64,000 nt of DNA, taken from positions 27,930 to 91,929 of the forward strand of contig JADFYH010000001.1 in NCBI GenBank assembly GCA_015233135.1, in the 5' to 3' direction. Position numbers and translations under genes: made by a program. Shown here piece by piece: positions 2,256 to 39,500 of this stretch (the first letter of the stretch is position 1; each line of letters starts with the position of its first letter). Below the pieces are notes generated by a model. It saw nothing but the letters and a program-made list of their open reading frames with translations. It ran no database searches and was not told the origin of the DNA. This stretch comes from Deltaproteobacteria bacterium. Lineage in GTDB: Bacteria > UBA10199 > JADFYH01.

Positions 2256-4214
2256 CTACTCTTTCTTTTTCCGACCCAGGGCCAAGGCCATAAAGCCTCC
2301 CGTCATCACCACGATACCCCCTATCCAAATCCATACCACCGCAGGAGTCAGGATGGCGTGGAGGGTAATCTTGGAGCCATTTTTTTCGAAACTCAAAAGA
2401 GTAAGATAGAGATCTTCCACCCCAGTAGAACGCACAGCGGGGCTACCAATGGGCTCATCTCTACCCGAATAGTAGTTCGACTGAGGAAAAAGCGAGCCCA
2501 AGGACTTGCCTTTGCTCGTAACGTCCACATCGGCCTTTACTTCATAACGCCTAGGGGTGTCTTCGCCGAAAATCTCTCGGAAGGTCAGGCTATAATCCCC
2601 AATGCTCGCCGACTGTCCCTTCTCGAGAATAATCATTCGGTCTTGCGCGTAGCTGCTGGAAATCGCCACCGCCACAATAATCATCAAGGCCCCAAAGTGT
2701 GCAACAAAGCCGCCATAACGGCGCGGGTTATCGGGAAAAAGCCTGAAGAATTCTGCAAGGCAAGAACTTTTTCTGTTCTGGGCCCGCAGCCTGGCCGTCT
2801 GAATCATTTCAATACACATCACAAAAAATGCAAAACTCGCCAGCGTGATCATTCCAACGACAAGGGGATGAGTTTTCCCCCACACGAAGCAAAGAGCCAG
2901 CGGAAGCAGAGCTAGGAGGGCCGGCCATTGGGCGGCCTTTACAAAGGCCTTGGCCTCTGTTTTTCTCCACGGCGTAATGAGCCCTATCCCCATCAGCAGG
3001 AGCATCATCCCCACAATGGGAATCGTCATTTGATTAAAATAAGGCTGACCAATCGAGATTCTTTTGCCTTGAACGGCTTCCACCACCAGCGGGTAGATGG
3101 TTCCTAAAAACACAACAAAGCAGAAGCTGACAAAAAGTAGATTGTTGAAGAGAAAAAGCACTTCGAGACTGAAGATATTTTCCACGCGTCCGGGATTACG
3201 AAATTTCGGTGCCTGCCACAAAAGGAGAGACAACGAGGTCGCCAGGATAACTGTCATGAAAATTAAAAAGTAGGGACCTACATGCGATTCGGTAAAAGAA
3301 TGGACACTGTCCAAGACTCCACTTCGGGTAAGAAAGGTTCCAAGCAGGGTGAGAAGAAAGGTGAGCACCGCAAGAATAAGATTCCAGACCGGCAACATCT
3401 TTCGTTTTTCCTGCACAATCATCGAGTGCACCAGCGCCGTTCCTGCAAGCCAGGGCATAAAACTCGCATTTTCTACGGGATCCCAGGCCCAGTAACCTCC
3501 CCAACCCAACACAGCGTAGGACCACCAGCCCCCCAAAACAATGGCCATCGAGAGAAAAGACCAGGCAAACAAGGCCCAGCGACGAGTCATTTCTATCCAC
3601 TGACCCGGTAGGTCTTGCTCGATCATCGCCGCAATGGCAAAGGCGAAGGGAATGGTAAAGCCGATATACCCCATATAAAGGAAAGGCGGATGGATGGACA
3701 TCAACCAGTGATTTTGCAGCAAGGGATTGGGGCCAGGTCCATTTTGTGGAACCGGGGAAACAGCAATAAAAGGATTGGAAGGAAGGGCCAGCAAAACAAA
3801 AAAGAAGAGCTCCACAAAAAGCAGCGTGATGCCAACCCAACACATTATTTTTTGCTCGCGCTCACGATAAAAGTAGATGCAAACCGCCGAATACGCCGAC
3901 AAGATCCATCCCCAAAAGAGAATGGAACCTGCCAGCGAACTCCAGAGAGAAATGGCGCTAATCCAACGCGGGGTCTCCAGACTTCCGACCTGCGCAACGT
4001 AGCTGACGCTGAAATCGTCGTTGAGCAAGGCATGCACCATCGCCAGATTGGCAAGGGTCATGAGAACAAAATTGGCGTAAACCGACGCCCGGGCGTAAGC
4101 CAAGGCCGTGTCATTTTCCAGTTTGCGTCCCAAAAAATAGAGCAGCATGCCGAAAACGCAGAAACCAATCGCCAGGGCAATGGAAATATTTCCAATGTAG
4201 ACAATGTAGTTCAT
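2256..4214 (-). CDS. ccmF: Cytochrome c heme lyase subunit CcmF
   Basis: 652 aa polytopic membrane protein with WGGYWAWDPVEN (WWD domain). Confidence 0.9.
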   Translation of the reverse strand: MNYIVYIGNISIALAIGFCVFGMLLYFLGRKLENDTALAYARASVYANFVLMTLANLAMVHALLNDDFSVSYVAQVGSLETPRWISAISLWSSLAGSILFWGWILSAYSAVCIYFYREREQKIMCWVGITLLFVELFFFVLLALPSNPFIAVSPVPQNGPGPNPLLQNHWLMSIHPPFLYMGYIGFTIPFAFAIAAMIEQDLPGQWIEMTRRWALFAWSFLSMAIVLGGWWSYAVLGWGGYWAWDPVENASFMPWLAGTALVHSMIVQEKRKMLPVWNLILAVLTFLLTLLGTFLTRSGVLDSVHSFTESHVGPYFLIFMTVILATSLSLLLWQAPKFRNPGRVENIFSLEVLFLFNNLLFVSFCFVVFLGTIYPLVVEAVQGKRISIGQPYFNQMTIPIVGMMLLLMGIGLITPWRKTEAKAFVKAAQWPALLALLPLALCFVWGKTHPLVVGMITLASFAFFVMCIEMIQTARLRAQNRKSSCLAEFFRLFPDNPRRYGGFVAHFGALMIIVAVAISSSYAQDRMIILEKGQSASIGDYSLTFREIFGEDTPRRYEVKADVDVTSKGKSLGSLFPQSNYYSGRDEPIGSPAVRSTGVEDLYLTLLSFEKNGSKITLHAILTPAVVWIWIGGIVVMTGGFMALALGRKKKE

Positions 4215-4672
4215 TTTGTATTTCCCTCAAGACCTTTCTCTTTTTTAAGTGAGCGATAGATCTCCTGGGGAATCATTCCTTCTTTGGGAGGACGATACTC
4301 ATTGCCGTGTTTGACCATCAGACGTTCTGCATTGAAGTGCCCATCCGCCTGCATGGAACCCTCCACCACCACCCCCATGCCTTCATGAAACATTTGCGGC
4401 GGGGTCTTGCTGCTGGTCACCCGTACTGAATTTTTATCATCTTTTACCGAAAAATTGAGGATATTGCCTTCCTGTTTTACCGAACCCTCCAGCACCACTC
4501 CTCCCAGGCGCACAGGGTTTCCAACGGCTGCCTGCCCCTTAGCCAGAACTTCGGTAGGCGTCACAAAATAAACCATATTTTGCTCCAGCCCTCCCCACAT
4601 GATATAGGCAATGGCCCCTGCGATGATGGCCACCGCCAGAAGACTAAAAATCTGTCGTCGTGAAAATTTCAT
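4211..4672 (-). CDS. ccmE: Heme chaperone CcmE
   Basis: MKFSRRQIFSLLAVAII... single TM plus OB-fold region ending HGNEYRPPK, as expected for CcmE. Start set to the internal Met (the listed ORF has a 53-aa spurious extension). Confidence 0.8.
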   Translation of the reverse strand: MKFSRRQIFSLLAVAIIAGAIAYIMWGGLEQNMVYFVTPTEVLAKGQAAVGNPVRLGGVVLEGSVKQEGNILNFSVKDDKNSVRVTSSKTPPQMFHEGMGVVVEGSMQADGHFNAERLMVKHGNEYRPPKEGMIPQEIYRSLKKEKGLEGNTK

Positions 4673-5468: not shown

Positions 5469-5520
5469 GCGAAGACTCCCTAAACCTAGAAAAACAGGTT
5501 CAAATGCATTTTTCCCAGGG

Positions 5521-5646
5521 CAAGGGACTGAAATTGTTCCAGATTGAGGCGGAAGTCCATTCACCCGAAAGGAGACGTAGCCCAAGCTACGTTGACTGAC
5601 GGGGGAATGGCTCCCAACGAAAAGCTGGGGCAATTGCAGTCCCTTG
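5521..5646. repeat. Structured ~120 nt repeat element, copy 2 (family A), between ccmB and ccmC
   Basis: About 90% identical to 454-570. Closing stem AAGGGACTG...CAGTCCCTT. Inner hairpin loop changed (AGAC to CCAA) with the stem preserved. Confidence 0.6.
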
Positions 5647-12114: not shown

Positions 12115-13314
12115 CTATTTCCTCATCGACTCAATCAAAATCCTCGCCACTTCAGGCCGTGAAAACTCAGGCGGTGGCAATTCCCCTTTGGAGAGTAGCT
12201 CTCGCACCTTGGTTCCCGAAAGCGCCACATGATTTTCTTTGTCATGAGGACAAGTCTTGGTCGAGGCCATGCCTTCGCATTTCTTGCAGTAGAAAGTATG
12301 GTCAAAAAACAGGGGAGTAATTGCCAATTCTTCTTTGTTAAAATTCTCAAAAATGAAATGCGCGTCAAAAGTGCCGTAGTAATTTCCCACACCGGCATGA
12401 TCGCGACCGACGATGAAATGCGAGCAGCCATAATTTTGACGGATTAAGGCATGGAAGATTGCCTCGCGAGGCCCCGCATAGCGCATCGCTGCGGGATTAA
12501 CGGCAAGTTGAGTACGGTTGGCAGGATAATAATTTTCAATGAGTTTTTCGTAGCATTTCATCCGCACCTCGGCCGGAATGTCGTCGCTCTTGGTGTCCCC
12601 CACGAGAGGATGGATGAGGAGTCCATCCACAATCTCCAAGGCACATTTGGTGAGATATTCGTGGGCGCGATGGATGGGATTACGCGTTTGAAAACCCACC
12701 ACGCGCTTCCATTTCTTTTCTGCAAATAAAGCGCGAAGTTGTGCGGGATCCAAACGGTATTGTAAAAAATGATCGTATTGAACTCGGTTGAGAACAGAGA
12801 CTTTCCCCGCCAAATACACTTCGCCTTGAGCATAAACCGCGGCAACACCCGGATGGGCGCCCTCTTCAGTTTTATAAACCTTTAAGGCCTCGTTTTTTTT
12901 ATTGGGTTCAAATTTTTCTTGGAGATGAAGAATAGCAAGAATTTCTCCCTCTGCCGAAAAAGCCCCCTCTCCCTTGAGGGGAGAGGGTTGGGGTGAGGGT
13001 GAAAACAACGCAATATCCTTCCCAATCTCATATTTTGCCGAATCTTCTTTTTTCACCGCCAGGGTAATAGGAATGGTCCACGCCAAACCATTCAAGAGCC
13101 GCATCTTTTCCACGACATTCTCATATTCCTTTTGGCCCATGAAGCCTTCCAGAGGAGAAAGCGCCCCACAGGCAATCATATCCAGATCACTCCTTTCGCG
13201 GGAATTGAGGACGATTTTGGGAAGTGCAGAAACTTGAGTGAGGGCTTTTTCTCTTTCGCTTCCAGTCAGGATACGAGAAATTAATTTTCCACCGTGTGGG
13301 GCTATCGCTGGCAT
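12115..13314 (-). CDS. sat: Sulfate adenylyltransferase (ATP sulfurylase)
   Basis: VGFQTRNPIHRAHE (QTRN and HxxH motifs) and GRDHAGVG motif; carries an in-frame repeat insertion (SPSPQPSPLKGEGAFSAEGE). Confidence 0.9.
   Translation of the reverse strand: MPAIAPHGGKLISRILTGSEREKALTQVSALPKIVLNSRERSDLDMIACGALSPLEGFMGQKEYENVVEKMRLLNGLAWTIPITLAVKKEDSAKYEIGKDIALFSPSPQPSPLKGEGAFSAEGEILAILHLQEKFEPNKKNEALKVYKTEEGAHPGVAAVYAQGEVYLAGKVSVLNRVQYDHFLQYRLDPAQLRALFAEKKWKRVVGFQTRNPIHRAHEYLTKCALEIVDGLLIHPLVGDTKSDDIPAEVRMKCYEKLIENYYPANRTQLAVNPAAMRYAGPREAIFHALIRQNYGCSHFIVGRDHAGVGNYYGTFDAHFIFENFNKEELAITPLFFDHTFYCKKCEGMASTKTCPHDKENHVALSGTKVRELLSKGELPPPEFSRPEVARILIESMRK
12962..13003. repeat. GC-rich palindromic repeat unit (family B) in-frame inside sat
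   Basis: ccccctctcccttgaggggagagggttggggtgagggtg; the same unit recurs at 22916, 31516, 35078, 36457 and as arms of the 16011, 18631 and 27084 elements. Confidence 0.7.
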
Positions 13315-15988: not shown

Positions 15989-16010
15989 AGATATAGATAG
16001 CTTCTTTACT

Positions 16011-16108
16011 TCCCCCTCTTAAGCTAAGAGGGGGTTAGGGGGCGTTATGACCAATTGAATGCGATTGAACCATAACCCCTCCTACCTCCCCTTAGCTTAA
16101 GGGGAGGA
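16011..16108. repeat. Palindromic GC-rich miniature element (family B, full two-armed copy)
   Basis: ccccctcttaagctaagaggggg ttagggggcgttatgacc ... ggtcataacccctcc ... ccccttagcttaaggggagg; intergenic between the JAMM gene and the cysteine synthase gene. Confidence 0.7.
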
Positions 16109-16115
16109 AAGGTCA

Positions 16116-27013: not shown

Positions 27014-27250
27014 TTCCCTCTCCCTTGAGGCATAGGTATCTACACATCTCAGCAAACTATTGGTTTTATTGACTCTGCTGTTCCTCCCCTTAAGCTAAGG
27101 GGAGGTTAGGAGGGGTTATGGAAGATCTTGCTGAACTCAAAAATACTGTAATTTGCACGGTTTTCCATAACTCCCCCAACCCCCTCTTAGCTTAAGAGGG
27201 GGCAATACCAAAAGATGTGTAGATACCTATGCCCTTGAGGGGAGGGGAAA
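27014..27250. repeat. About 240-bp near-perfect palindromic miniature element (family B core with long terminal inverted repeats)
   Basis: ccctctcccttgaggcataggtatctacacatct (27014-27050) mirrored by agatgtgtagatacctatgcccttgaggggagggg (27213-27250); core two-hairpin unit at 27084-27203. Confidence 0.75.
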
Positions 27251-31115: not shown

Positions 31116-31916
31116 TCACTTCAACAAAGCCACCCAGCCCGTAGCAATCTGATGCGCCCAGCGACGCAGTCCGGGAAGGTATTTAAGCATGTCCGTCAAA
31201 ATTTGCCTGGGATTTAAACCGGCCGTGATAATTTCCTGTTCCCCAATTTCTACCCAGTTTCTCAGCATGCTATCGGTCATCTCCGGGTGAAATTGCAAAC
31301 CATACACCCGATCCATATAGCGAAACGCCTGGTTGATAAAAAGCGCAGAACCCGCCAGGCGCATGGCCCCGCTGGGAATATCAAACGTTTCCCCATGCCA
31401 TTGAAATAAAACGGAAGGAGAGGGAAGCATCCCAAAAATAGGATCTTTATTAGAAGCCGGCGCCAGAGTCAGCGGATACCAGCCGATTTCCCTCAGAATG
31501 TTTCCCTTCAATATTCCCCTCCCCCCCTGAGGGGGAGGGTGTCCGCCAGAGGCGGACGGGAGAGGGGCAGGAGGACCAGGGAGAGGGGTAGAAATAGAAT
31601 ACACCTTCGCCCCCAAAGCCTTCGCAATCAGCTGGGCCCCCAAACACACCCCTAAAAGGGGAAGCCGTAACTGAATGGCCTGGAGAATCATCTTCAACTC
31701 ATCGGCAATAAATTGAAGCTTAGCTCCATCGTTCGCACTCATAGAACCACCCATCAGGACAATGCCCGAATAATCGCAAAGCTCTTCATCGAGAGGAACT
31801 GGATCGCCCAAAAAAAGTTTTTTAGTGATGACCTGCTGGCCCGGTTTGTGGAACAAGGGCTCAAAGGCGCCAATGCCTTCGTGGGCTTCGTGTTGGAGGA
31901 CGAGTATTTTTTTCAT
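31116..31916 (-). CDS. Class I glutamine amidotransferase-like protein
   Basis: GVCLGAQL catalytic Cys region and HPE motif; in-frame Pro/Gly-rich insertion (PLPGPPAPLPSASGGHPPPQGGRG) from repeat DNA at 31516-31590; start set to MKKILVLQ. Confidence 0.65.
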   Translation of the reverse strand: MKKILVLQHEAHEGIGAFEPLFHKPGQQVITKKLFLGDPVPLDEELCDYSGIVLMGGSMSANDGAKLQFIADELKMILQAIQLRLPLLGVCLGAQLIAKALGAKVYSISTPLPGPPAPLPSASGGHPPPQGGRGILKGNILREIGWYPLTLAPASNKDPIFGMLPSPSVLFQWHGETFDIPSGAMRLAGSALFINQAFRYMDRVYGLQFHPEMTDSMLRNWVEIGEQEIITAGLNPRQILTDMLKYLPGLRRWAHQIATGWVALLK

Positions 31917-32236
31917 GGGTGTTCCATCCAAAAGCGAAGGGAGTCCGGACAAAGTTCAAAACCATTAGGCCAGGCCAAGGCACCCGATTCAACAAAACAT
32001 TTCTCAAAAATCCCTCCTCTGAGGACCTCTGCAGCCAGACCCTTTGGATGTAAAAAAAGGTGTTGAAGCGAAACAGCAGCTTTACATCCATCTTGAAATA
32101 ATAAGCTCACTTGAAAATTTTCCAAGCTTACCTTCAAAATCTTTTGAACACTATTTCCTAAAGAGACCGGGGTGATTCTTACTTTTCCAGCCCTTGTATT
32201 CTTTTTGACGTCTTGTTTTCTTGCGCGAGTTGCCAT
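31913..32236 (-). CDS. Hypothetical small protein (DUF2442-like?)
   Basis: 107-aa ORF, 4-nt overlap with the GATase start. Confidence 0.3.
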   Translation of the reverse strand: MATRARKQDVKKNTRAGKVRITPVSLGNSVQKILKVSLENFQVSLLFQDGCKAAVSLQHLFLHPKGLAAEVLRGGIFEKCFVESGALAWPNGFELCPDSLRFWMEHP

Positions 32237-32278
32237 GCTCTCCTCAATTCAAGAAATGCAGCGATGATAGGCATAAAA

Positions 32279-32665
32279 TTATTTTCTTCGCTTGGGCTTC
32301 AACTTCTTCAACCTCACCGAGGGCATTCTTTTCAGTTTTTGATTTTTGGGGTCAATATCAATCCCCACCGATTCTAAAGCAGTCACCCCCAAAATGGGTT
32401 CAGTGCCAGGATCTCCAAAGATAATGGTACCTCCAACAATTTCTCCCATAAACTCTATATCACCCGTTGTAATGTCCATTTTTATTTCACTTCCATCCCC
32501 CAGTTCATAAGTGCGCTGAGATTTAGGCTTGAGTCCTATAGCTTCTAAATGATCTCGCGGGACCAGAGAATCGATCGCTCCACTATCCACAAGGAAAAGC
32601 CCTTCCCAAGATTTTTTTGGATTTGCTGGATTGCGAATGGTAACTGTGACATGTGTGGCGCCCAT
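32279..32665 (-). CDS. Retropepsin-like (clan AA) aspartyl protease
   Basis: FLVDSGAIDSLV, a D-S-G-A catalytic motif in a 128-aa protein with a basic C-terminal tail. Confidence 0.55.
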   Translation of the reverse strand: MGATHVTVTIRNPANPKKSWEGLFLVDSGAIDSLVPRDHLEAIGLKPKSQRTYELGDGSEIKMDITTGDIEFMGEIVGGTIIFGDPGTEPILGVTALESVGIDIDPKNQKLKRMPSVRLKKLKPKRRK

Positions 32666-32691
32666 AAAATACTCCCTTATCCATGAGGATA

Positions 32692-33006
32692 CTAATATTC
32701 TTCCCGTTCCAAAAGCTCAATCTCAGGAAAAATTTCTTTCAGCAAAGCTTCCCAGTATTGAGGGCGCTGGGTTTCCTCGATTTTAATTAAAACTTGAAAT
32801 TCTTTATAAAGGACTCGATGGTTTTCATCGTCGATAAACCAATTGAGTAATATACAAATTTTTTCTCCTGTATTGAGATCGTAAGAATAATACTCCCCAT
32901 AATGATCGCTAATTCTTCCAACAGGACTTACTGGAACGATCTTGTTTAATTCAAGATACAATACCTCAACATCACCTTTTTTTAACCCATACAAATCGTA
33001 GATCAT
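32692..33006 (-). CDS. Hypothetical protein
   Basis: 104-aa ORF, co-directional with its neighbours. Confidence 0.3.
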   Translation of the reverse strand: MIYDLYGLKKGDVEVLYLELNKIVPVSPVGRISDHYGEYYSYDLNTGEKICILLNWFIDDENHRVLYKEFQVLIKIEETQRPQYWEALLKEIFPEIELLEREEY

Positions 33007-33014
33007 ACTTCCAC

Positions 33015-34160
33015 CTATTTCTTAAGAAAATTGATATAGTACCCTCTCTGCGAAAGAGTTGCTTCAGAATCATAAATCACAAAAGTAACTTCTCTCTGAA
33101 AATAATTTTTTAATTCTAGAGTCAATTGATGTAGCCCTAGCTTTTCTGAATAATTGGGCTCTAAAGGCCATGTTCGTCTTCTGCTTGCAAGAGGCGCTCT
33201 CACTTCCTTCGCCCTCTCAAAAATCTCCTTCCCCGAAATAGAAAAATCAAAATCGCTTCGTTTCACTGCATCAAAAGCATGACCCAGTCTAAAATTCTTC
33301 CCTGTCACCGCACTCCCAAACAGGTGAGCTTTGGCTTCCGGAAACCCTGCTTCTGCAAGGGCTTGATGGATCTTATTCCCCACCACCTCAAATTCCGCAA
33401 CATCTTTAAATCCATGGGGTAACTTTGAAAGTGCCTTAAATTTGGAAATATCCCCTATCGCCCCAATCTCACCCAACTCCCCAATCTTCCCCACTTTTGC
33501 AACAGGAGCAATCAAAGTCGCAACTTCAAAAGCAATCGAGCCTTTCCCTTCATCACTATTCCATTTTTCCTGATACTGCTGTTTAACCCCTTCCCAAGTC
33601 TGCAAGGGATGCAAGGCCATGTTGCCCAAGCCTTCCAGAGGCTTCATGCCTGGCATCATTCGGAGATTTTCTTTGAAATTTTCCTTTGCCCCTTCCCAGG
33701 TTTTGTTCTGTTCCGCGTGATAACCAAAATGTTCCCATTCTTTTTTGAAAGAATCGTAAATATTTTCTAAAGGAGAAAGTGAGACCACCCCCTTAATCAT
33801 TTCTCCAGGGCCATCGATAAAAAATCCTTTTAAAAAATGGGTGGCTCGTTTTCTTAACTCGGAAGTATTTGCATCCCAAGCGCTTTTTCGTTTTTCGAGA
33901 GCAGAAAAACCCTTTTGCATGTCCTGACTAAAAAAAGGAGAGCCTTGTTGCCTTTCTTTTATTTCCTGAGCCTGAGAATCATCAATTTCAGTCTCTACTT
34001 TTGCAGAGAAGGTCGAGGGCTTGATTTCTTTTAAATTGGATCGGAGGAGTGCTTGTGTCATAGCTTGTGGAAAAAGCAGGAGCTGTGCCAAAAAATTAAA
34101 ACTTGAAATTGAAGCACTTACAAAAATGAAAAAAATGAGCGGCATCCGATTTTCAGACAC
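33015..34160 (-). CDS. Hypothetical secreted protein with C-terminal nucleotidyltransferase-like motif
   Basis: Signal peptide; HLFGSAVTGKNF...SDFDFSISG resembles the pol-beta NTase GS...DxD motif. Confidence 0.3.
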   Translation of the reverse strand: MSENRMPLIFFIFVSASISSFNFLAQLLLFPQAMTQALLRSNLKEIKPSTFSAKVETEIDDSQAQEIKERQQGSPFFSQDMQKGFSALEKRKSAWDANTSELRKRATHFLKGFFIDGPGEMIKGVVSLSPLENIYDSFKKEWEHFGYHAEQNKTWEGAKENFKENLRMMPGMKPLEGLGNMALHPLQTWEGVKQQYQEKWNSDEGKGSIAFEVATLIAPVAKVGKIGELGEIGAIGDISKFKALSKLPHGFKDVAEFEVVGNKIHQALAEAGFPEAKAHLFGSAVTGKNFRLGHAFDAVKRSDFDFSISGKEIFERAKEVRAPLASRRRTWPLEPNYSEKLGLHQLTLELKNYFQREVTFVIYDSEATLSQRGYYINFLKK

Positions 34161-34164
34161 GAGT

Positions 34165-35646
34165 ATGAAAACAAAACAAAAGATTTACACCCTCACCCTA
34201 CCCTCTTCCCTCTCCCAACTCCGCTCTACCCTCCTCCCTTGGTACCAGCAGCACAAGCGCAGTCTACCTTGGCGCCAGACGAAAGACCCATACAAAATCT
34301 GGCTTTCCGAAATCATGTTACAGCAAACGCAAGTCACCACCGTGATTGATTACTATCAGCGTTTTCTAAAAAAATTCCCTACCTTGGAGAGTTTGGCTAA
34401 GGCTAAAGAACAAGACGTGCTCACCCTGTGGTCAGGGCTGGGCTACTACAGCCGAGCCAAAAATCTGCAAAAAGCCGCCCAAAAAATTGTTCAAAACTAT
34501 CATGGAATTTTTCCAAACGATCCGGCTGAAATGCTCAAACTCCCGGGCATAGGCCTCTACACTCGAGGTGCCATTGCCAGTATTGCCTTTGATTTGCCGG
34601 TGGCTTTGGTGGATGGAAATGTGATTCGCGTGTATTCCAGATTACTCGCACTTGCGGGATCGCCTTCGGACGCAAAATTTGTGAAGGAAATTTGGAGAGT
34701 GGCGGAGGGGGTGATTGAGAAGTTAGACGTGAGACGTGAGACGAAAGAAGTAAAAAGTAAAACTGAAAAAAACCCAGGTCTTTCGTCTCACCTCTCACGT
34801 CTCACGTCTTCCCCTCCCCATTCCCCTGGCGACTTCAACCAGGCCCTCATGGAACTGGGCGCCACGATTTGCAGCCCAAAAAATCCCAGCTGTCTGATTT
34901 GCCCACTTCAAAAATGTTGTGAAGGAAAATTACTGGGCCCTGAAAATTTCCCGGAGAAGAAAAAGAGGACGAAAACGAAGGAAATGACGCGCGTAGTGTG
35001 GGTGATGCTGGAGCATGAGAAAGGGTGCAGATGCATTTTACCTCACCCTGACCCTTTCCTCAAGAAGGAAGCAGAATCCCCTCTCCCTCGAGGGGAGAGG
35101 GCCGGGGTGAGGGTGATAAATCAACTGGACCCCCACTGCAAAATCCAACTGATTCAAGACCCCAATACCCGTTGGCACAAGGGCTTGTGGCAGTTGCCTG
35201 GGGAATGGGAGGAGGGAAGAGGAAAAAGGAAAGAGGGAAGAGGGGAGAAGGGAGAAGGGAGACGTGAAACGAAAGACGTAAAAAGTGAAATGGGAAAAAG
35301 CTCCCATCTTCCGTCTCACCTCTTACGTCTCACACCTCACGTCTTACCCCTCCCCTCCTTCACCCACCACATAACCCATCATAAAATAAAGGTTTTGCCG
35401 TATTTGGTAAGAAAGTTAGAAGTAAGTCGTGAAACGAAAGACGTAAGACGGAAGACGAAAGAAGTGAGACGTGAAACGGGAAAAACATTTCCTCTTCCGT
35501 CTCACATCTCACATCTCACATCTCACGCATCTCCCCTCACGTCCCTCCCCCTCCCCCAGGCCCTAAAACTCCCCCTCCCCGCCCCGGACAAGAAAATTTT
35601 AAATTTCTTGCGAGAATTTATGGATAAAGGCAGGGCATCTAAATGA
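34165..35646 (+). CDS. mutY: Adenine DNA glycosylase MutY with multiple in-frame repeat insertions
   Basis: LPWRQTKDPYKIWLSEIMLQQTQV; HhH-GPD region; 4Fe-4S cluster CSPKNPSCLICPLQKCC; C-terminal NUDIX-like region split by three inserted segments (VRRETKEVKS..., GRRETKDVKS..., SRETKDVRRKTKEVRRETGK...). Confidence 0.8.
   Translation: MKTKQKIYTLTLPSSLSQLRSTLLPWYQQHKRSLPWRQTKDPYKIWLSEIMLQQTQVTTVIDYYQRFLKKFPTLESLAKAKEQDVLTLWSGLGYYSRAKNLQKAAQKIVQNYHGIFPNDPAEMLKLPGIGLYTRGAIASIAFDLPVALVDGNVIRVYSRLLALAGSPSDAKFVKEIWRVAEGVIEKLDVRRETKEVKSKTEKNPGLSSHLSRLTSSPPHSPGDFNQALMELGATICSPKNPSCLICPLQKCCEGKLLGPENFPEKKKRTKTKEMTRVVWVMLEHEKGCRCILPHPDPFLKKEAESPLPRGERAGVRVINQLDPHCKIQLIQDPNTRWHKGLWQLPGEWEEGRGKRKEGRGEKGEGRRETKDVKSEMGKSSHLPSHLLRLTPHVLPLPSFTHHITHHKIKVLPYLVRKLEVSRETKDVRRKTKEVRRETGKTFPLPSHISHLTSHASPLTSLPLPQALKLPLPAPDKKILNFLREFMDKGRASK
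34725..34812. repeat. ACGTGAGACG-type palindromic element (family C) in-frame in mutY
   Basis: agacgtgagacgtgagacgaaagaag ... tctttcgtctcacctctcacgtctcacgtct. Confidence 0.7.
35260..35349. repeat. Family C palindromic element, second copy in mutY
   Basis: gagacgtgaaacgaaagacgtaaaaagtgaaatgggaaaaagctcccatcttccgtctcacctcttacgtctcac. Confidence 0.7.
35407..35530. repeat. Family C palindromic element, third copy in mutY (with ctcacat x3)
   Basis: aagtcgtgaaacgaaagacgtaagacggaagacgaaagaagtgagacgtgaaacgg ... ccgtctcacatctcacatctcacatctcacgc. Confidence 0.7.
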
Positions 35647-36065
35647 CCTTAAAACTGACAAGTCTTACAAAAGCAATTGAATCGCTGGCAAAATCTGTTC
35701 AAGTTATTTCCTCTCCAAAACAGATGGAAGCGCTGACTCCTGAAGCACGAGAGACCATCCAATCGGGTGTCATTCAAAACTTTGAAGTCGCTTATGAACA
35801 AGCCTGGAAGATGATGAAACGCTGGATTGAAAACAATGTCGGGAGCACTGTGGTGGATGGCGTCAGTCGCAGAGAACTTTTTCGTTTAGCGGCTGAATCC
35901 CAATTGATTCAGGATGTCGATTTGTGGATGAGTTTTCATCAGGCAAGAAATGAAACTTCACACACTTATGACGGTGAGATTGTCGAAGAAGTGTTGGAAA
36001 TAGCTTCTCGCTTTTTGCTGGAAGTCAAAAATCTTTATTCCTATCTGGAAAAACACAATGATTGA
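35643..36065 (+). CDS. HEPN-domain protein, HI0074 family (second pair)
   Basis: QARNETSHTYD Rx4HxY motif; 4-nt overlap with the mutY stop, 8-nt overlap with the downstream MNT gene. Confidence 0.75.
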   Translation: MTLKLTSLTKAIESLAKSVQVISSPKQMEALTPEARETIQSGVIQNFEVAYEQAWKMMKRWIENNVGSTVVDGVSRRELFRLAAESQLIQDVDLWMSFHQARNETSHTYDGEIVEEVLEIASRFLLEVKNLYSYLEKHND

Positions 36066-36375
36066 TTTGCCCCAAACTACCCTTAAAACCATCCAAAATA
36101 TTCTCAAAACCCGGCTTCCCCAAGCGGAAGTGCGCGCCTTTGGTTCGCGGGTGATGGGAACAGCTAAACCCTACTCCGATCTCGATTTAGTCATTCTAGA
36201 CTCCCAAAAATTAGGCCTGAACACCCTGGCTACACTAAAAGAGGCCTTTCAAGAATCCAATATACCCATTCGTGTGGATGTTCTGGATTGGAACGCCATT
36301 AGCCCCGAATTTCGGGAAGTGATTGAGAAAAAGTACGAAATCCTTCAAAAATCAGAAAATCACAAAAAATTTTAA
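36058..36375 (+). CDS. Minimal nucleotidyltransferase (MNT, HI0073 family), second pair
   Basis: AFGSRVMGTAKPYSDLDLVILD. Confidence 0.75.
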   Translation: MIDLPQTTLKTIQNILKTRLPQAEVRAFGSRVMGTAKPYSDLDLVILDSQKLGLNTLATLKEAFQESNIPIRVDVLDWNAISPEFREVIEKKYEILQKSENHKKF

Positions 36376-36558: not shown

Positions 36559-39500
36559 ATGTTTCGTTCTTCCAAAAAAACTTTCTTCCTACTCTTACTC
36601 TTCACTCTTCACTCTTCGCTCTTTTCTCCCCTCGCCCAGGCAAGACAGAACTGGTTTGACTCCCTGAAAGATTTTTTCAAACAACAAATTGGTTCTGTGG
36701 ATTTCAATATAAAACCTAACTCGACACAAAATCTCAATCCTGTCCAAAACACCTCTTTCGATCCCAGAATACGATTAAATCCCAACGTTATTTTCGATCC
36801 AAGCCTGTTGAGAGATGGCCCTACTCCCATGGAACCCTTTCGTTTGAATCCCGCTACGGCTTATGATCCTGTCCACCAGCGGTATTTGGTGGTTTGGGAA
36901 CAGAAACCTGCCCTGGATAGCAGTGAAATTCATGCCCAGTATTACAGTCGGGAAGGAGTGGCTCAGGGCACGGACCTGCTCGTCAGTACTGCCCGACCTA
37001 CTCAGGGTTGTTTGTACTCAGGCTTTCATAGCGATCGCCCTAATCTAACCCCGCTCAGCGAAGACAATTGCAAAGAGGCACGCAATCCTTCTGTGGCTTA
37101 TAGCAATGGGAAATTTTTAATCCTCTGGGAACTGGGCGGAACCGCGCCTTATGCCTATAACGCTCACTATATAACTGAAATGCGCGATGGACATTCTGTA
37201 CTCGTCCGTACCGACGAAGCCCCCACGGTGAATGAGGAAGGAAAGGTATTTTCTAACATCATCGCAAAAATGGTAAATGCCGACGACAGCCTAAGCCCTG
37301 CAAACCCCATGGGGCATGATAATAATTGGGATGAAGGCATTTTAATCTCCCAGTTCAACGTCTCGGTCAATCAGGATTATGTCTATAACGCAACCACTCG
37401 CCATTGGGATGCCTTTAACCCTGCAACAGCTACCGATATGGATGTGCAGGCCTGGTGGGTCTCCAAAAATCCAAAGGTTGCCGCTTTAACTCATGCGGGA
37501 GCCAGCGATCCTACGGGCTTTGTGGTGACTTGGGATTCCAACCGGGAATTCACCGATTGCCGCGAACCTATACGCCGCGCTTCCACGGGAGTTTTTGCCC
37601 GTTATATCGATGAAAATTTCCTGGGGCAAATTCCCAGAGGCAGCGCTAATCCCAACAAACCGGTCATCCCCATCAGTCGCGACGTTTCGGGAGATCCCAC
37701 AACCACACCCGATCACCGTTGCAGCGGAGATGTGCAAGAAGCCAAAAAACCCAAATTGGCCGTGGCAGCTTCGAATGATGTCGTGCTGACTTACGAAAGC
37801 ACAACGGCCAGTTTCCCCAACGCAACCGGCACGCCGACGCGCACACCCACTCGCATTGGTCTCAAAAAATTAAGTTTCTCCAATATACAAGGGATGAGCC
37901 ACGAGAATAGCAGCAGCGATTTTGGAATTATCTTTCCTTCGACAGGCACAGAAAATCAGCAAAATCCGGATCTCCTTACTTATCGCAATCAAGTCGTGTT
38001 GGCCTATGATGACGCAAGCTCCATCTATCTTCAAAAATTTAATACCAGTCCTGCTTTATCGGCCACTTGCCCCATGGGGATGCCGACTTGCAGCCCTGTT
38101 CGTCTGGGGATGGAAGGCGATGCCGCGAAAACCAAACCTGTACTCGGAAGCAATTTAAATGGATCGGCCTGCCCCATGGCCCCTGCAGGGATGGAGACGG
38201 CCTGCAGACCCGACACCCTGGGCCTGAGTTATCTGGAAGCGGACAATGTGAAATTAGCCTTCCTGGATGCGGACAGCAATTTCAGCCCCGCTCGTCCCCC
38301 CGTCACTTTATCTTCCGGATCTACGACTAATGTGCCTGGGGCACTCGCCAGCAACGGCGTGGATTTCTTTGGCGCCTGGACGGGTGTTGCCGCTCATCGC
38401 ACCAATATCTTCACGAGCGCCAGCCCCACCTTGGCAGCTCTCGTTGCTCCCACTTTAGTCACACCCAATGTGGATGCCAATTTACCCAGCACCACGGTAG
38501 ATTTTTCCTGGTCGCATCCCGGTGGAACTGGGATTCAATATACCTTACAACTGGCCCCCATGGGATCGACCTTGGCAGATGTTGCCAGTTGTCAAAATGT
38601 CTCCACGACGATGTGTCGAGTCTCTACAGGTCTAAGCTTCGGCCAAAGCTATCAATGGCGTGTCAAAGCAGTAGACAGTCGATATAGAGGACGTGAAATT
38701 TTTTCGACGGAAACCAGAACCTTCAGACTCTCTGTGGATGCCTTACCCGCACCCGTACTAATTTCTCCAGCAGCCGATGCCTCCCTCACCTCGAACAGCG
38801 TTGATTTCTCATGGTCGCATCCCGGCGGAGCTGGCATTCAATACACCTTGCAACTGGGACAGGGGGGCATGCCCGCAACCGATGTCCCTACTTGCCAAAA
38901 CATCACTGCCCTCACTTGCCGTGTGAGTGGACTGACTTTTGGACAGAGCTACCAATGGCGAGTGACCGCTCGCGACAGCACCATGCCTTTGCGCACTTCC
39001 GTTTCTGCCGAAACCCGAAGCTTTAATTTAGCGGTAGAAGTTCTGGCCCCCCCTGTTTTAATCAGCCCTGTCACTACACCCGTGGGCAGCCCTCTCACTT
39101 CCAACGCCATGGACTTCAGTTGGACTCATCCCGGTGGCGCAGGAATTCAATACACCTTGCAGCTTTCTCCCACGGGAATGGATCTGGTGGATGTCCCCAC
39201 TTGTCAAAACATCACTGCCCTCACCTGTCACGTCAGCGGGCTGATGTGGGGACAGACCTATCAATGGCGAGTCACCGCTCGAGACAGCACCATGCCCTTG
39301 CGCACTTCCGTTTCTGCGGAGATGAGAACCTTTACCCTCATCGGTATTTTAGCGGCCCCTATGCTGGTCTCCCCTGATAACGCCGCAACTCTCAGCACAA
39401 ACTCCGTCACCCTGCAATGGGCCGCCATGACACCCAGACCCGGCCTGGTCTACGATGTGTTTGTAGATGACATCACAACAAGCGGCAGCAGCACCCCCTT

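Follow-up and report, generated by a model that had tools for sequence, protein, structure and literature searches.

A mutY gene apparently decorated in frame by palindromic heptamer-array elements in a deltaproteobacterial metagenome assembly

Introduction

How can the gene of a conserved DNA repair enzyme take up several stretches of palindromic repeat DNA and still be read from end to end? The question is raised by the mutY gene on a 64,000-nucleotide stretch of DNA (hereafter the window) from contig JADFYH010000001.1 of the GenBank assembly GCA_015233135.1, positions 27,930 to 91,929, to which all coordinates below refer unless a locus is named. An earlier, sequence-only reading of the window had proposed that a distinct palindromic family, here called family C, lies in frame in mutY in three copies (C1, C2 and C3), together with one unit of a second palindrome, family B, and this is borne out by our alignments, inverted-repeat searches and folds. 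In our view, held with a probability of roughly 0.7, mutY has on four occasions been colonised by repeat DNA that is non-coding and forms hairpins, the outcome being a decorated, functional-looking enzyme that resembles the genes carrying Rickettsia palindromic elements (RPEs).

Results

The open reading frame (ORF) in question is identical to the protein MBF0491207.1 (locus HQM15_00310) of NCBI, which is recorded on a 162-kb contig of a 'Deltaproteobacteria bacterium' metagenome-assembled genome (MAG) and which the Prokaryotic Genome Annotation Pipeline (PGAP) names 'hypothetical protein'. The gene and its inserts are as follows.

34165-35646, + strand: mutY coding sequence, open over 493 amino acids; an A/G-specific adenine glycosylase with four inserts, identified by Pfam, solved structures and an AlphaFold2 (AF2) model.
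34702-34826, + strand: C1, the best-preserved heptamer hairpin; about 32 residues (LDVRRETKEVKSKTEKNPGLSSHLSRLTSSPPH) added at site 1, before GDFNQ.
35037-35117, + strand: family B, a GC-rich nested palindrome (CCTCACCC...CCCTCTCCCTCGAGGGGAGAGGG..GGGGTGAGGGTGA); in frame, about 40 residues added.
35207-35360, + strand: C2, an eroded heptamer hairpin; a net gain of 20 residues in the stretch that leads from the GLWQLPG motif to the F-T-H loop.
35410-35556, + strand: C3, an eroded heptamer hairpin with a repeated left-arm block (period 21); about 28 residues added within the C-terminal domain, between its last beta-strands.
35500-35526, + strand: (TCTCACA)x3.9, the longest perfect heptamer tract in mutY, a 27-nt period-7 run in the right arm of C3, with 100% matches in Tandem Repeats Finder (TRF).

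The three C copies align without gaps over 146 nt (34695-34840, 35223-35368 and 35409-35554), at 62-71% identity, and each of them is an imperfect inverted repeat. In plan, degenerate heptamers in tandem make up two arms that are inverted relative to each other, (GTGAGAC)n - loop - (GTCTCAC)n, and the family profile matches both strands of each copy. In C1, the boundaries of which are uncertain by about 15 nt, a left arm of TGAGACG-type units (34701-34748) is followed by an A-rich loop (34749-34778) and a right arm of CGTCTCA-type units (34779-34826). The arms of C2 (35247-35293/35311-35357) are built of GGGAAGA, GGGAGAC, GTGAAAC and GAAAGAC units on the left and of CGTCTCA and CCTCTTA units on the right, while those of C3 lie at 35422-35460/35488-35526. 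TRF places period-7 arrays at 34716-34743, 34784-34809, 35207-35262, 35418-35472 and 35500-35526. Folded as DNA, the C1 hairpin reaches a free energy of -33 kcal/mol (z -7.9), with z of -2.9 for C2 and -2.0 for C3, both of them eroded; the family B palindrome, with arms at 35041-35069/35084-35112, folds with z of -3.5 as DNA and -4.7 as RNA. Counting the degenerate outer units, a C element is about 125-150 nt long, with arms of 40-50 nt and loops of 17-30 nt. The length of 90-125 nt proposed earlier was therefore somewhat short, and the inverted arms described with it are real, only that they consist of tandem heptamers. What is more, a paired apex variant, CGAAAGA in one arm and TCTTYCG in the other, is common to C1, C2 and C3, and because of this apex and the gapless 146-nt alignment, the sequences point to common descent of the three copies.

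Within the window these motifs are practically confined to mutY. Namely, GTGAGACG occurs 8 times, always in mutY (0.49 occurrences expected), the 20-mer given in the sequence-only reading has 4 matches at up to 3 mismatches, again all in mutY (0 expected), and of 22 loose matches to a two-heptamer 15-mer, 21 are within the gene. Period-7 tracts of other sequence are found nearby as well, one of them, (CCCTCTC)x5.3 at 34201-34238, in the non-conserved N-terminus of MutY, and another, (ACTCTTC)x4.9 at 36591-36623, encoding the hydrophobic, signal-peptide-like N-terminus of a 1427-residue fibronectin-III/laminin-G protein.

What does such an element do to a reading frame? Since 7 is coprime to 3, a perfect (GTGAGAC)n array has TGA in all three frames, reading V-R-R-E-T-stop-D in each of them, and its complement gives a stop-free V-S-R-L-T-S-H; since the C element is a palindrome, the all-frame stop applies to both strands. 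This heptamer construction, and with it the stop in every frame unless mutated, had escaped the sequence-only reading. In mutY, the left-arm units beginning at codon position 1 are seven in number, and every one of them carries a sense codon in place of TGA or TAA, this being TTA at 34723 and 35416, AAA at 34744, 35272, 35437 and 35458, and GGA at 35251. In the other two phases, TGA or TAA is retained by 13 of 16 left-arm units, going by a hand count on the sequence and its register table. None of the four inserts contains a stop in the mutY frame, and in every insert each of the five remaining frames is stopped at least once. In other words, the ORF runs on across about 540 nt of repeat DNA in which no other frame is open, and the claim that it stays open across all inserts and is thereby extended to 493 residues holds. 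One could imagine that the AAA unit was selected afresh within mutY. That idea is weakened, however, by the fact that GAAAGAC units are common in heptamer arrays elsewhere and that the variant is paired in both arms, and the AAA unit was probably inherited from the source element.

Is the product still a MutY? Pfam detects HhH-GPD (5e-24) and HHH (helix-hairpin-helix) domains in the 493-residue protein, and its best solved relatives are MutY/MUTYH of Geobacillus stearothermophilus, E. coli and mammals, with E-values down to 5e-64. Nearly all the homologs listed in a large protein collection are 320-445 residues long, with 340-400 for most homologs, the nearest of those listed being about 51-55% identical, and the excess of some 120 residues over homologs is accounted for by the sum of the four inserts. 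Homologs were aligned in a set of 15 and then in a set of 54, the latter giving 55 sequences together with the window protein. At site 1, between the IWxIAE helix and GDFNQALMELGA, where C1 is found, there are 51 residues here as compared with 19 in 39 of the 54 homologs. The family B site, which lies in the C-terminal domain within its first beta-hairpin, spans 57 residues as opposed to 17 in nearly all homologs (18-21 in a few). From GLWQLPG to the F-T-H loop, the C2 site, the distance is 67 residues against about 47 in close homologs, and between the last strands, at the C3 site, it is 75 against 47 in most. In none of the 54 homologs does an insert occupy the B site or the C2 site, nor does any of them carry a C-type insert at any position, and the alignment shows the inserts to be lineage-specific and not the property of a conserved MutY subfamily, which had been named beforehand as an outcome that would speak against insertion. 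The sequence-only reading had also put the inserts in the linker and the NUDIX-like domain, which is right for C2 and C3, both in the C-terminal domain, and wrong for C1, which lies within the N-terminal (catalytic) domain, immediately ahead of the GDFNQALMELGA helix of the Fe-S module; the interdomain linker (residues 257-276) is free of inserts. Similarly, the high charge ascribed to the inserts is a property of their left-arm halves, which encode Arg/Lys/Glu-rich peptides with helices predicted by the AF2 model (e.g. residues 170-199 and 423-438), while the right arms encode Ser/His/Leu/Thr/Pro-rich peptides.

Outside the inserts, the protein has kept what a MutY is expected to have. Of the alignment columns, 80 are conserved to at least 90% in the 54 other homologs, and the window protein carries the conserved residue at 78 of them, which ranks it 30th of 55. 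The catalytic residues E49 and D150, counterparts of the catalytic Glu and Asp of the G. stearothermophilus enzyme (E43 and D144), are present together with N152, all in columns invariant in the 55-sequence alignment, as are the Fe-S cysteines C236, C243, C246 and C252, likewise invariant, in the motif that follows the GDFNQALMELGA helix. The loop that reads 8-oxoguanine, of F-S-H type, is present in an F-T-H version, and the homologs align through the C-terminal NUDIX-like domain. In the AF2 model built from the 55-sequence alignment, the mean predicted local distance difference test score (pLDDT) is 80.7 and the predicted template modelling score (pTM) is 0.78, with pLDDT mostly above 90 outside the inserts. 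The blocks of low pLDDT, at residues 190-220, 290-320, 350-390 and 420-460, coincide with the four inserts, falling to 42-55 over residues 351-390. Compared by Foldseek with full-length MutY-DNA complexes, the model attains target-normalised template modelling scores of 0.83-0.88 (0.87 for the full-length G. stearothermophilus MutY). The inserts are thus predicted to be low-confidence excursions from a confident MutY fold, as had been suggested for modelling to check, and their tolerance is a prediction of the model. Because the frame has no stops, 78 of 80 conserved columns and the catalytic and Fe-S residues are kept, and the inserts are modelled as excursions from a confident fold, the gene looks functional and does not look like a decaying pseudogene, the other outcome that had been named as speaking against the proposal. 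As a side remark, repeat inserts of this kind can mask well-known enzymes from routine annotation, the protein being labelled 'hypothetical protein' and its NUDIX_4 domain being undetected by Pfam.

In-frame palindromes are not confined to mutY in this genome and its relatives. A second family B copy lies in frame in the ATP sulfurylase (sulfate adenylyltransferase) gene at 12960-13000 on the minus strand, with its core at 12966-12986, and a GC-rich palindrome at 31505-31600, also on the minus strand, is in frame in a class-I glutamine amidotransferase (GATase) gene, making the protein 31 residues longer than its ortholog. A third palindromic family, with nested CCCCTCTTAAGCTAAGAGGGG / GGTTAGGAGGGG motifs, is intergenic (16010-16109 and 27080-27200). 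What is more, site 1 of MutY is occupied in a number of other lineages. In the closest clade, proteins carry inserts there of 34 residues (P0003), 23-24 residues (P0004, P0005, P0006, P0008 and P0010), 12 residues (P0007), 16 residues (P0011), 17 residues (P0012) and 13 residues (P0024). At the DNA level, hairpins at site 1 were confirmed in three mutY orthologs, at loci L121 (10541-10690), L122 (10490-10610) and L123 (10475-10570). Those of L121 and L123 are family B-like GC-rich elements unrelated to family C, while that of L122 shares the 15-mer GGGAGGTTAGGAGGG with the third, intergenic palindromic family of the window. Across related lineages, MutY site 1 has thus been taken by three or four distinct repeat families at the least, which makes it either a natural permissive loop or an insertion hotspot. 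Because several unrelated elements occupy one loop, a permissive loop filtered by selection fits better than a sequence-specific target, though the latter is conceivable too, and with the ATP sulfurylase, the GATase and site 1 of L121-L123, this genome and its relatives are seen to tolerate in-frame palindromes.

Heptamer hairpins of the family C type occur far beyond this genome. A scan of a genome collection with the pattern GTGAGACGN{20,50}CGTCTCAC gave at least 120 loci, mostly chance matches to what is a loose pattern, and since the loci were selected by a pattern that itself contains the motif, no frequencies can be read from them. Among the matches listed, (GTGAGAC)n / (GTCTCAC)n hairpins are present in MAGs of Chloroflexia, Gemmatimonadales, Bacteroidota, Nitrospirota, Acidobacteriota and 'delta proteobacterium', as well as in a cultured Flavihumibacter, and several genomes carry more than one copy; Vulcanimicrobiota is also among the phyla with GTGAGAC-type hairpins or long arrays. 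With the family C profile, at least 39 heptamer hairpins in at least 34 loci were found among the matches listed, many of them at full length. In such hairpins, three perfect units put a TGA into each of the three frames of either strand, and those copies for which the neighbourhood was inspected are intergenic, at the ends of genes. The clearest examples are the following.

L113 ('delta proteobacterium' MAG, 45% GC), 2736-2850, 3218-3316, 4441-4520 and 5505-5615: four intergenic heptamer hairpins within 8 kb, with a common loop.
L003 4711-4781; L091 7764-7834; L061 4970-5059; L024 3460-3535; L055 6040-6240; L127; L131: other GTGAGAC-type hairpins or long arrays.

Two of these 39 hairpins lie within bona fide genes, in bacteria that are not related. 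In a STAND/NB-ARC ATPase gene of a Chloroflexia MAG (L031, 7124-7199), an in-frame heptamer hairpin encodes the peptide LRRETRDVRRENEDLTHDSRLTSHAS, with TGA replaced by CGA, and in a sugar 4,6-dehydratase-like gene (L116, 2324-2440) another encodes NVRRETLDV...SRLTSNVSHLTPRVSHLTPHVSHLTS, with TGA replaced by TTA. At the latter locus there are, in addition, a second internal insert and a heptamer array shortly upstream of the likely start. Because L031 and L116 carry such in-frame hairpins, the capture of heptamer hairpins in frame is a recurrent event, of which mutY with its three copies is the extreme case. Family C belongs to a wider class of heptamer hairpins that is apparently little described: we found no paper naming GTGAGAC-type heptamer hairpins, and exact 14-mers of family C did not turn up in the literature searched.

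In a metagenome scan with the left-arm pattern of family C, the 7 matches were heptamer arrays of other organisms and not family C proper, and GAAAGAC units are common in those arrays. Viral contigs gave only 2 matches to three perfect units and no association with phages. An idealised (VSRLTSH)n protein query matched only hypothetical ORFs of 40-79 residues, and the weaker matches to the aligned insert peptides are spurious ORFs over heptamer arrays. It should be noted that protein searches have little sensitivity for short arrays embedded in large proteins, and that they missed both in-frame cases found at the DNA level.

Other roles were considered for the palindromes. An intrinsic terminator or promoter function was rejected, as there is no terminator-like site on the + strand inside mutY and the regional count of such sites does not exceed that in shuffled sequence. 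In Rfam 15, the only matches were sub-threshold ones to eukaryotic miRNA hairpins, which reflect a generic hairpin resemblance.

As to the surroundings of mutY, a HepT-like (nucleotidyltransferase substrate-binding) and MNT nucleotidyltransferase toxin-antitoxin pair at 35643-36375 starts 4 nt before the end of the mutY stop (an ATGA overlap), where relatives have other genes downstream of mutY. Upstream, over 31116-34160, relatives at L121-L124 have the GATase gene adjoining mutY in divergent orientation, and the window has two ORFs between these genes, at 32692-33006 and at 33015-34160, the latter without a Pfam match. Finally, at around 40.8 kb the GC content falls to about 32%, from about 47% before. 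The low-GC part (40800-64000) is a polysaccharide gene cluster with genes for an O-antigen ligase-like protein, glycosyltransferases, sugar epimerases/dehydratases and a C-methyltransferase; a horizontal gain is possible, the alternative being a chimeric contig.

Discussion

How does family C compare with the known repeats of bacterial genomes? A close parallel in behaviour is with RPEs, which are outlined in PMC10969869 and PMC3733652 as palindromes of 100-150 bp that lie in frame in seemingly functional genes, add 30-50 residues through one open frame, and are reported to be compatible with the three-dimensional fold of the protein. Family C palindromes, at about 125-150 nt and in frame in a conserved gene, are similar. 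However, RPEs are found in many unrelated genes, whereas family C is in mutY only, as judged from the 64 kb of DNA and the protein collections; moreover, its arms are tandem heptamers, and its host is a free-living-type 'Deltaproteobacteria' MAG of about 47% GC and not a Rickettsia. Going by this heptamer build and by the host, homology between the two is unlikely. The GTAG and CGTC repetitive extragenic palindromes (REPs) of Di Nocera et al. (2013, PMC3733652) also occur within ORFs, sometimes twice per gene and often in replication and repair genes, although mutY goes unmentioned in the main text of that paper. The CGTC REPs, which are without a known dedicated transposase, have a stem of 8-9 bp, a loop of 4-5 nt, a terminal CGTC tag and a CCA tail (PMC3733652). 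The arms of family C do contain CGTC, but they measure 40-50 nt and are stacks of 7-nt units, its loops measure 17-30 nt, and on these dimensions we rejected family C as a CGTC REP. Lastly, transposable elements of the miniature inverted-repeat kind (MITEs) such as Correia, ERIC and Nezha are small and non-autonomous, with inverted ends, a capacity to form hairpins and occasional in-frame fusions (PMC10969869). The arms of family C are inverted repeats as well; here, however, the whole element is the inverted repeat, and neither discrete terminal inverted repeats nor, in Pfam scans of about 17 ORFs of the window, a cognate transposase was identified.

In build, family C resembles heptanucleotide tandem repeats, with which it shares head-to-tail 7-nt units, as found by TRF. 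Heptamers are also the units of the short tandemly repeated repetitive (STRR) sequences of cyanobacteria. The TAACTGA heptamers of Beggiatoaceae, Cyanobacteria and Bacteroidetes have stops in all forward frames and a translatable reverse strand; they are mostly intergenic, patchily distributed across phyla and not known to have a mobilising mechanism, and almost all of them are direct repeats (PMC4679880). Family C differs in that its arrays are inverted into a long hairpin, that its unit is GTGAGAC, and that it lies inside coding sequence. What is new here is hence an RPE-like, in-frame palindrome with heptanucleotide-array arms or, put differently, a palindromic relative of the bacterial heptanucleotide repeats.

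The account that we prefer runs as follows. C elements, or copies of one another, would have been inserted or copied into mutY, candidate routes being transposition, hairpin-mediated template switching and gene conversion. What we see today would be the survivors of purifying selection on MutY, namely those that preserved the frame, fell in a structurally tolerant place and had no in-frame stop. As a perfect (GTGAGAC)n stops every frame, survival would have needed a sense codon (AAA, TTA or GGA) in the unit that falls in frame. The outcome would be a conserved MutY core from which about 120 additional residues depart in charged excursions, helical or disordered, and most likely the inserts are passengers, neutral or slightly deleterious, and not new functional domains.

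That said, several observations weigh against colonisation from outside, or against the intactness of the enzyme. With the C1-C3 profile at maximum sensitivity, no further family C copy is found in the 64-kb window, and the insert peptides match no other protein among 5.8 billion word-indexed sequences and 1.84 billion cluster representatives (about 15 billion proteins), a search that covered the rest of the NCBI proteome of this MAG. In this respect the word 'family' in the sequence-only reading suggests a genome-wide dispersal of which the 64 kb and the proteins searched show no sign. Three copies within 830 bp of one gene are unlike random genome-wide transposition, and this clustering points to either intragenic copying or a bias towards mutY. 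No target-site duplication was recognised by eye at the approximate C boundaries, no terminal tag was identified, and no transposase turned up in Pfam scans of about 17 ORFs of the window, beyond which no wider search was made. As for the protein, Pfam does not detect NUDIX_4 in it. Both mismatches among the conserved columns border on an insert, one on family B and one on C3, the Trp after C3 being replaced by Ser, and at the C2 site the native helix of the NUDIX-like domain is unrecognisable in the homolog alignment. Judging by that alignment, C2 appears to have overwritten the native helix, and with the two lost residues the C-terminal domain has taken some damage, so that its full function is not assured. 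The description of the elements as inserted therefore needs qualifying, since C2 and C3 are not clean additions, with C2 adding only about 20 residues net and C3 costing the adjacent Trp. Finally, the sequence comes from a metagenome assembly.

Could the three C copies have originated within mutY itself? One hairpin seed could have entered the gene or arisen there and been copied intragenically, by template switching, gene conversion or unequal exchange, with its arms resized by 7-nt slippage. The tight clustering, with nothing similar elsewhere in the 64 kb, and the lack of the insert peptides in any other public protein searched would be expected on these grounds, as would the derived CGAAAGA/TCTTYCG apex common to the copies; in C3, an internal 21-nt triplication and the perfect (TCTCACA)x3.9 run are typical of slippage, and heptanucleotide repeats are, according to an account in PMC4679880, slippage-prone and over-represented in bacteria. 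However, the copies are only 62-71% identical, so that any intragenic copying must be old, similar hairpins are dispersed and multi-copy elsewhere (L113, and MAGs of Chloroflexia and Gemmatimonadales), and the three sites have no linking direct repeats or common native flanks. On balance, we regard a purely local origin as unlikely, though it is the alternative that we take most seriously. Far less probable is that mutY is a decaying pseudogene filling up with repeats, or a product of metagenome mis-assembly. The PGAP name, the missed NUDIX_4 domain, the two conserved residues lost beside inserts, the unrecognisable helix at the C2 site and the origin from a MAG would all suit such an explanation. 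Yet the frame is open for 493 codons across about 540 nt of repeat DNA with stops in the five other frames, all four inserts preserve it, the 78 of 80 conserved columns and the full set of catalytic and Fe-S ligand residues are typical for the family, the core is modelled with confidence, and an assembler is not expected to produce in-frame repeats purged of stops.

A different possibility is that the inserts are useful to the cell, either as adaptive modules, with charged helices adding contacts to DNA or partners, or as a slippage-driven frameshift switch that would make a phase-variable mutator. Arg/Lys/Glu-rich left-arm peptides with predicted helices would agree with the former. As for the latter, 7 is not a multiple of 3, and a change by one unit at 34725-34743 or 35500-35526 would truncate or re-tail MutY; in particular, the gain or loss of a unit at 35500-35526 is a frameshift that replaces the last 40 residues. 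Intragenic REPs are, what is more, unexpectedly common in replication and repair genes (PMC3733652), and site 1 of mutY is repeatedly occupied in related lineages. On the other side, the perfect tracts are short (2.4-3.9 units), model confidence is low in the insert regions, the inserts are conserved in no relative, so that there is no evidence of selection on them, and the occupants of site 1 are unrelated sequences, a pattern that suits a permissive loop more than it does a specific function. Slip-prone, frameshifting tracts permit the reading as a phase-variable mutator and do not support it, and we consider adaptive modules or a switch very improbable. One may also widen the idea of a switch into a bolder one, in which mutY is a contingency locus toggling a G:C-to-T:A mutator state and the heptamer hairpins are an unnamed cross-phylum class, coupling an all-frame stop with a hairpin, whose retention in repair genes is not accidental; this we hold to be improbable as well, something of a long shot.

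If mutY has indeed been colonised by repeat DNA, what would this mean? In-frame decoration by palindromes, best known in Rickettsia, would be extended to an unrelated environmental lineage and to a gene of base-excision repair, and an enzyme of about 360 residues would be seen to tolerate four inserts that make it about a third longer. Selection would have left its signature at the level of sequence, with only the in-frame stop triplets purged from a repeat that stops all frames. The site 1 loop of MutY would be a natural permissive site, useful for protein engineering, and mutY would be one more case of the excess, so far unexplained, in which palindromic repeats occur in genes of DNA replication and repair. 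Finally, our results point to heptamer-array hairpins as a class that is widespread and, it would seem, little described.

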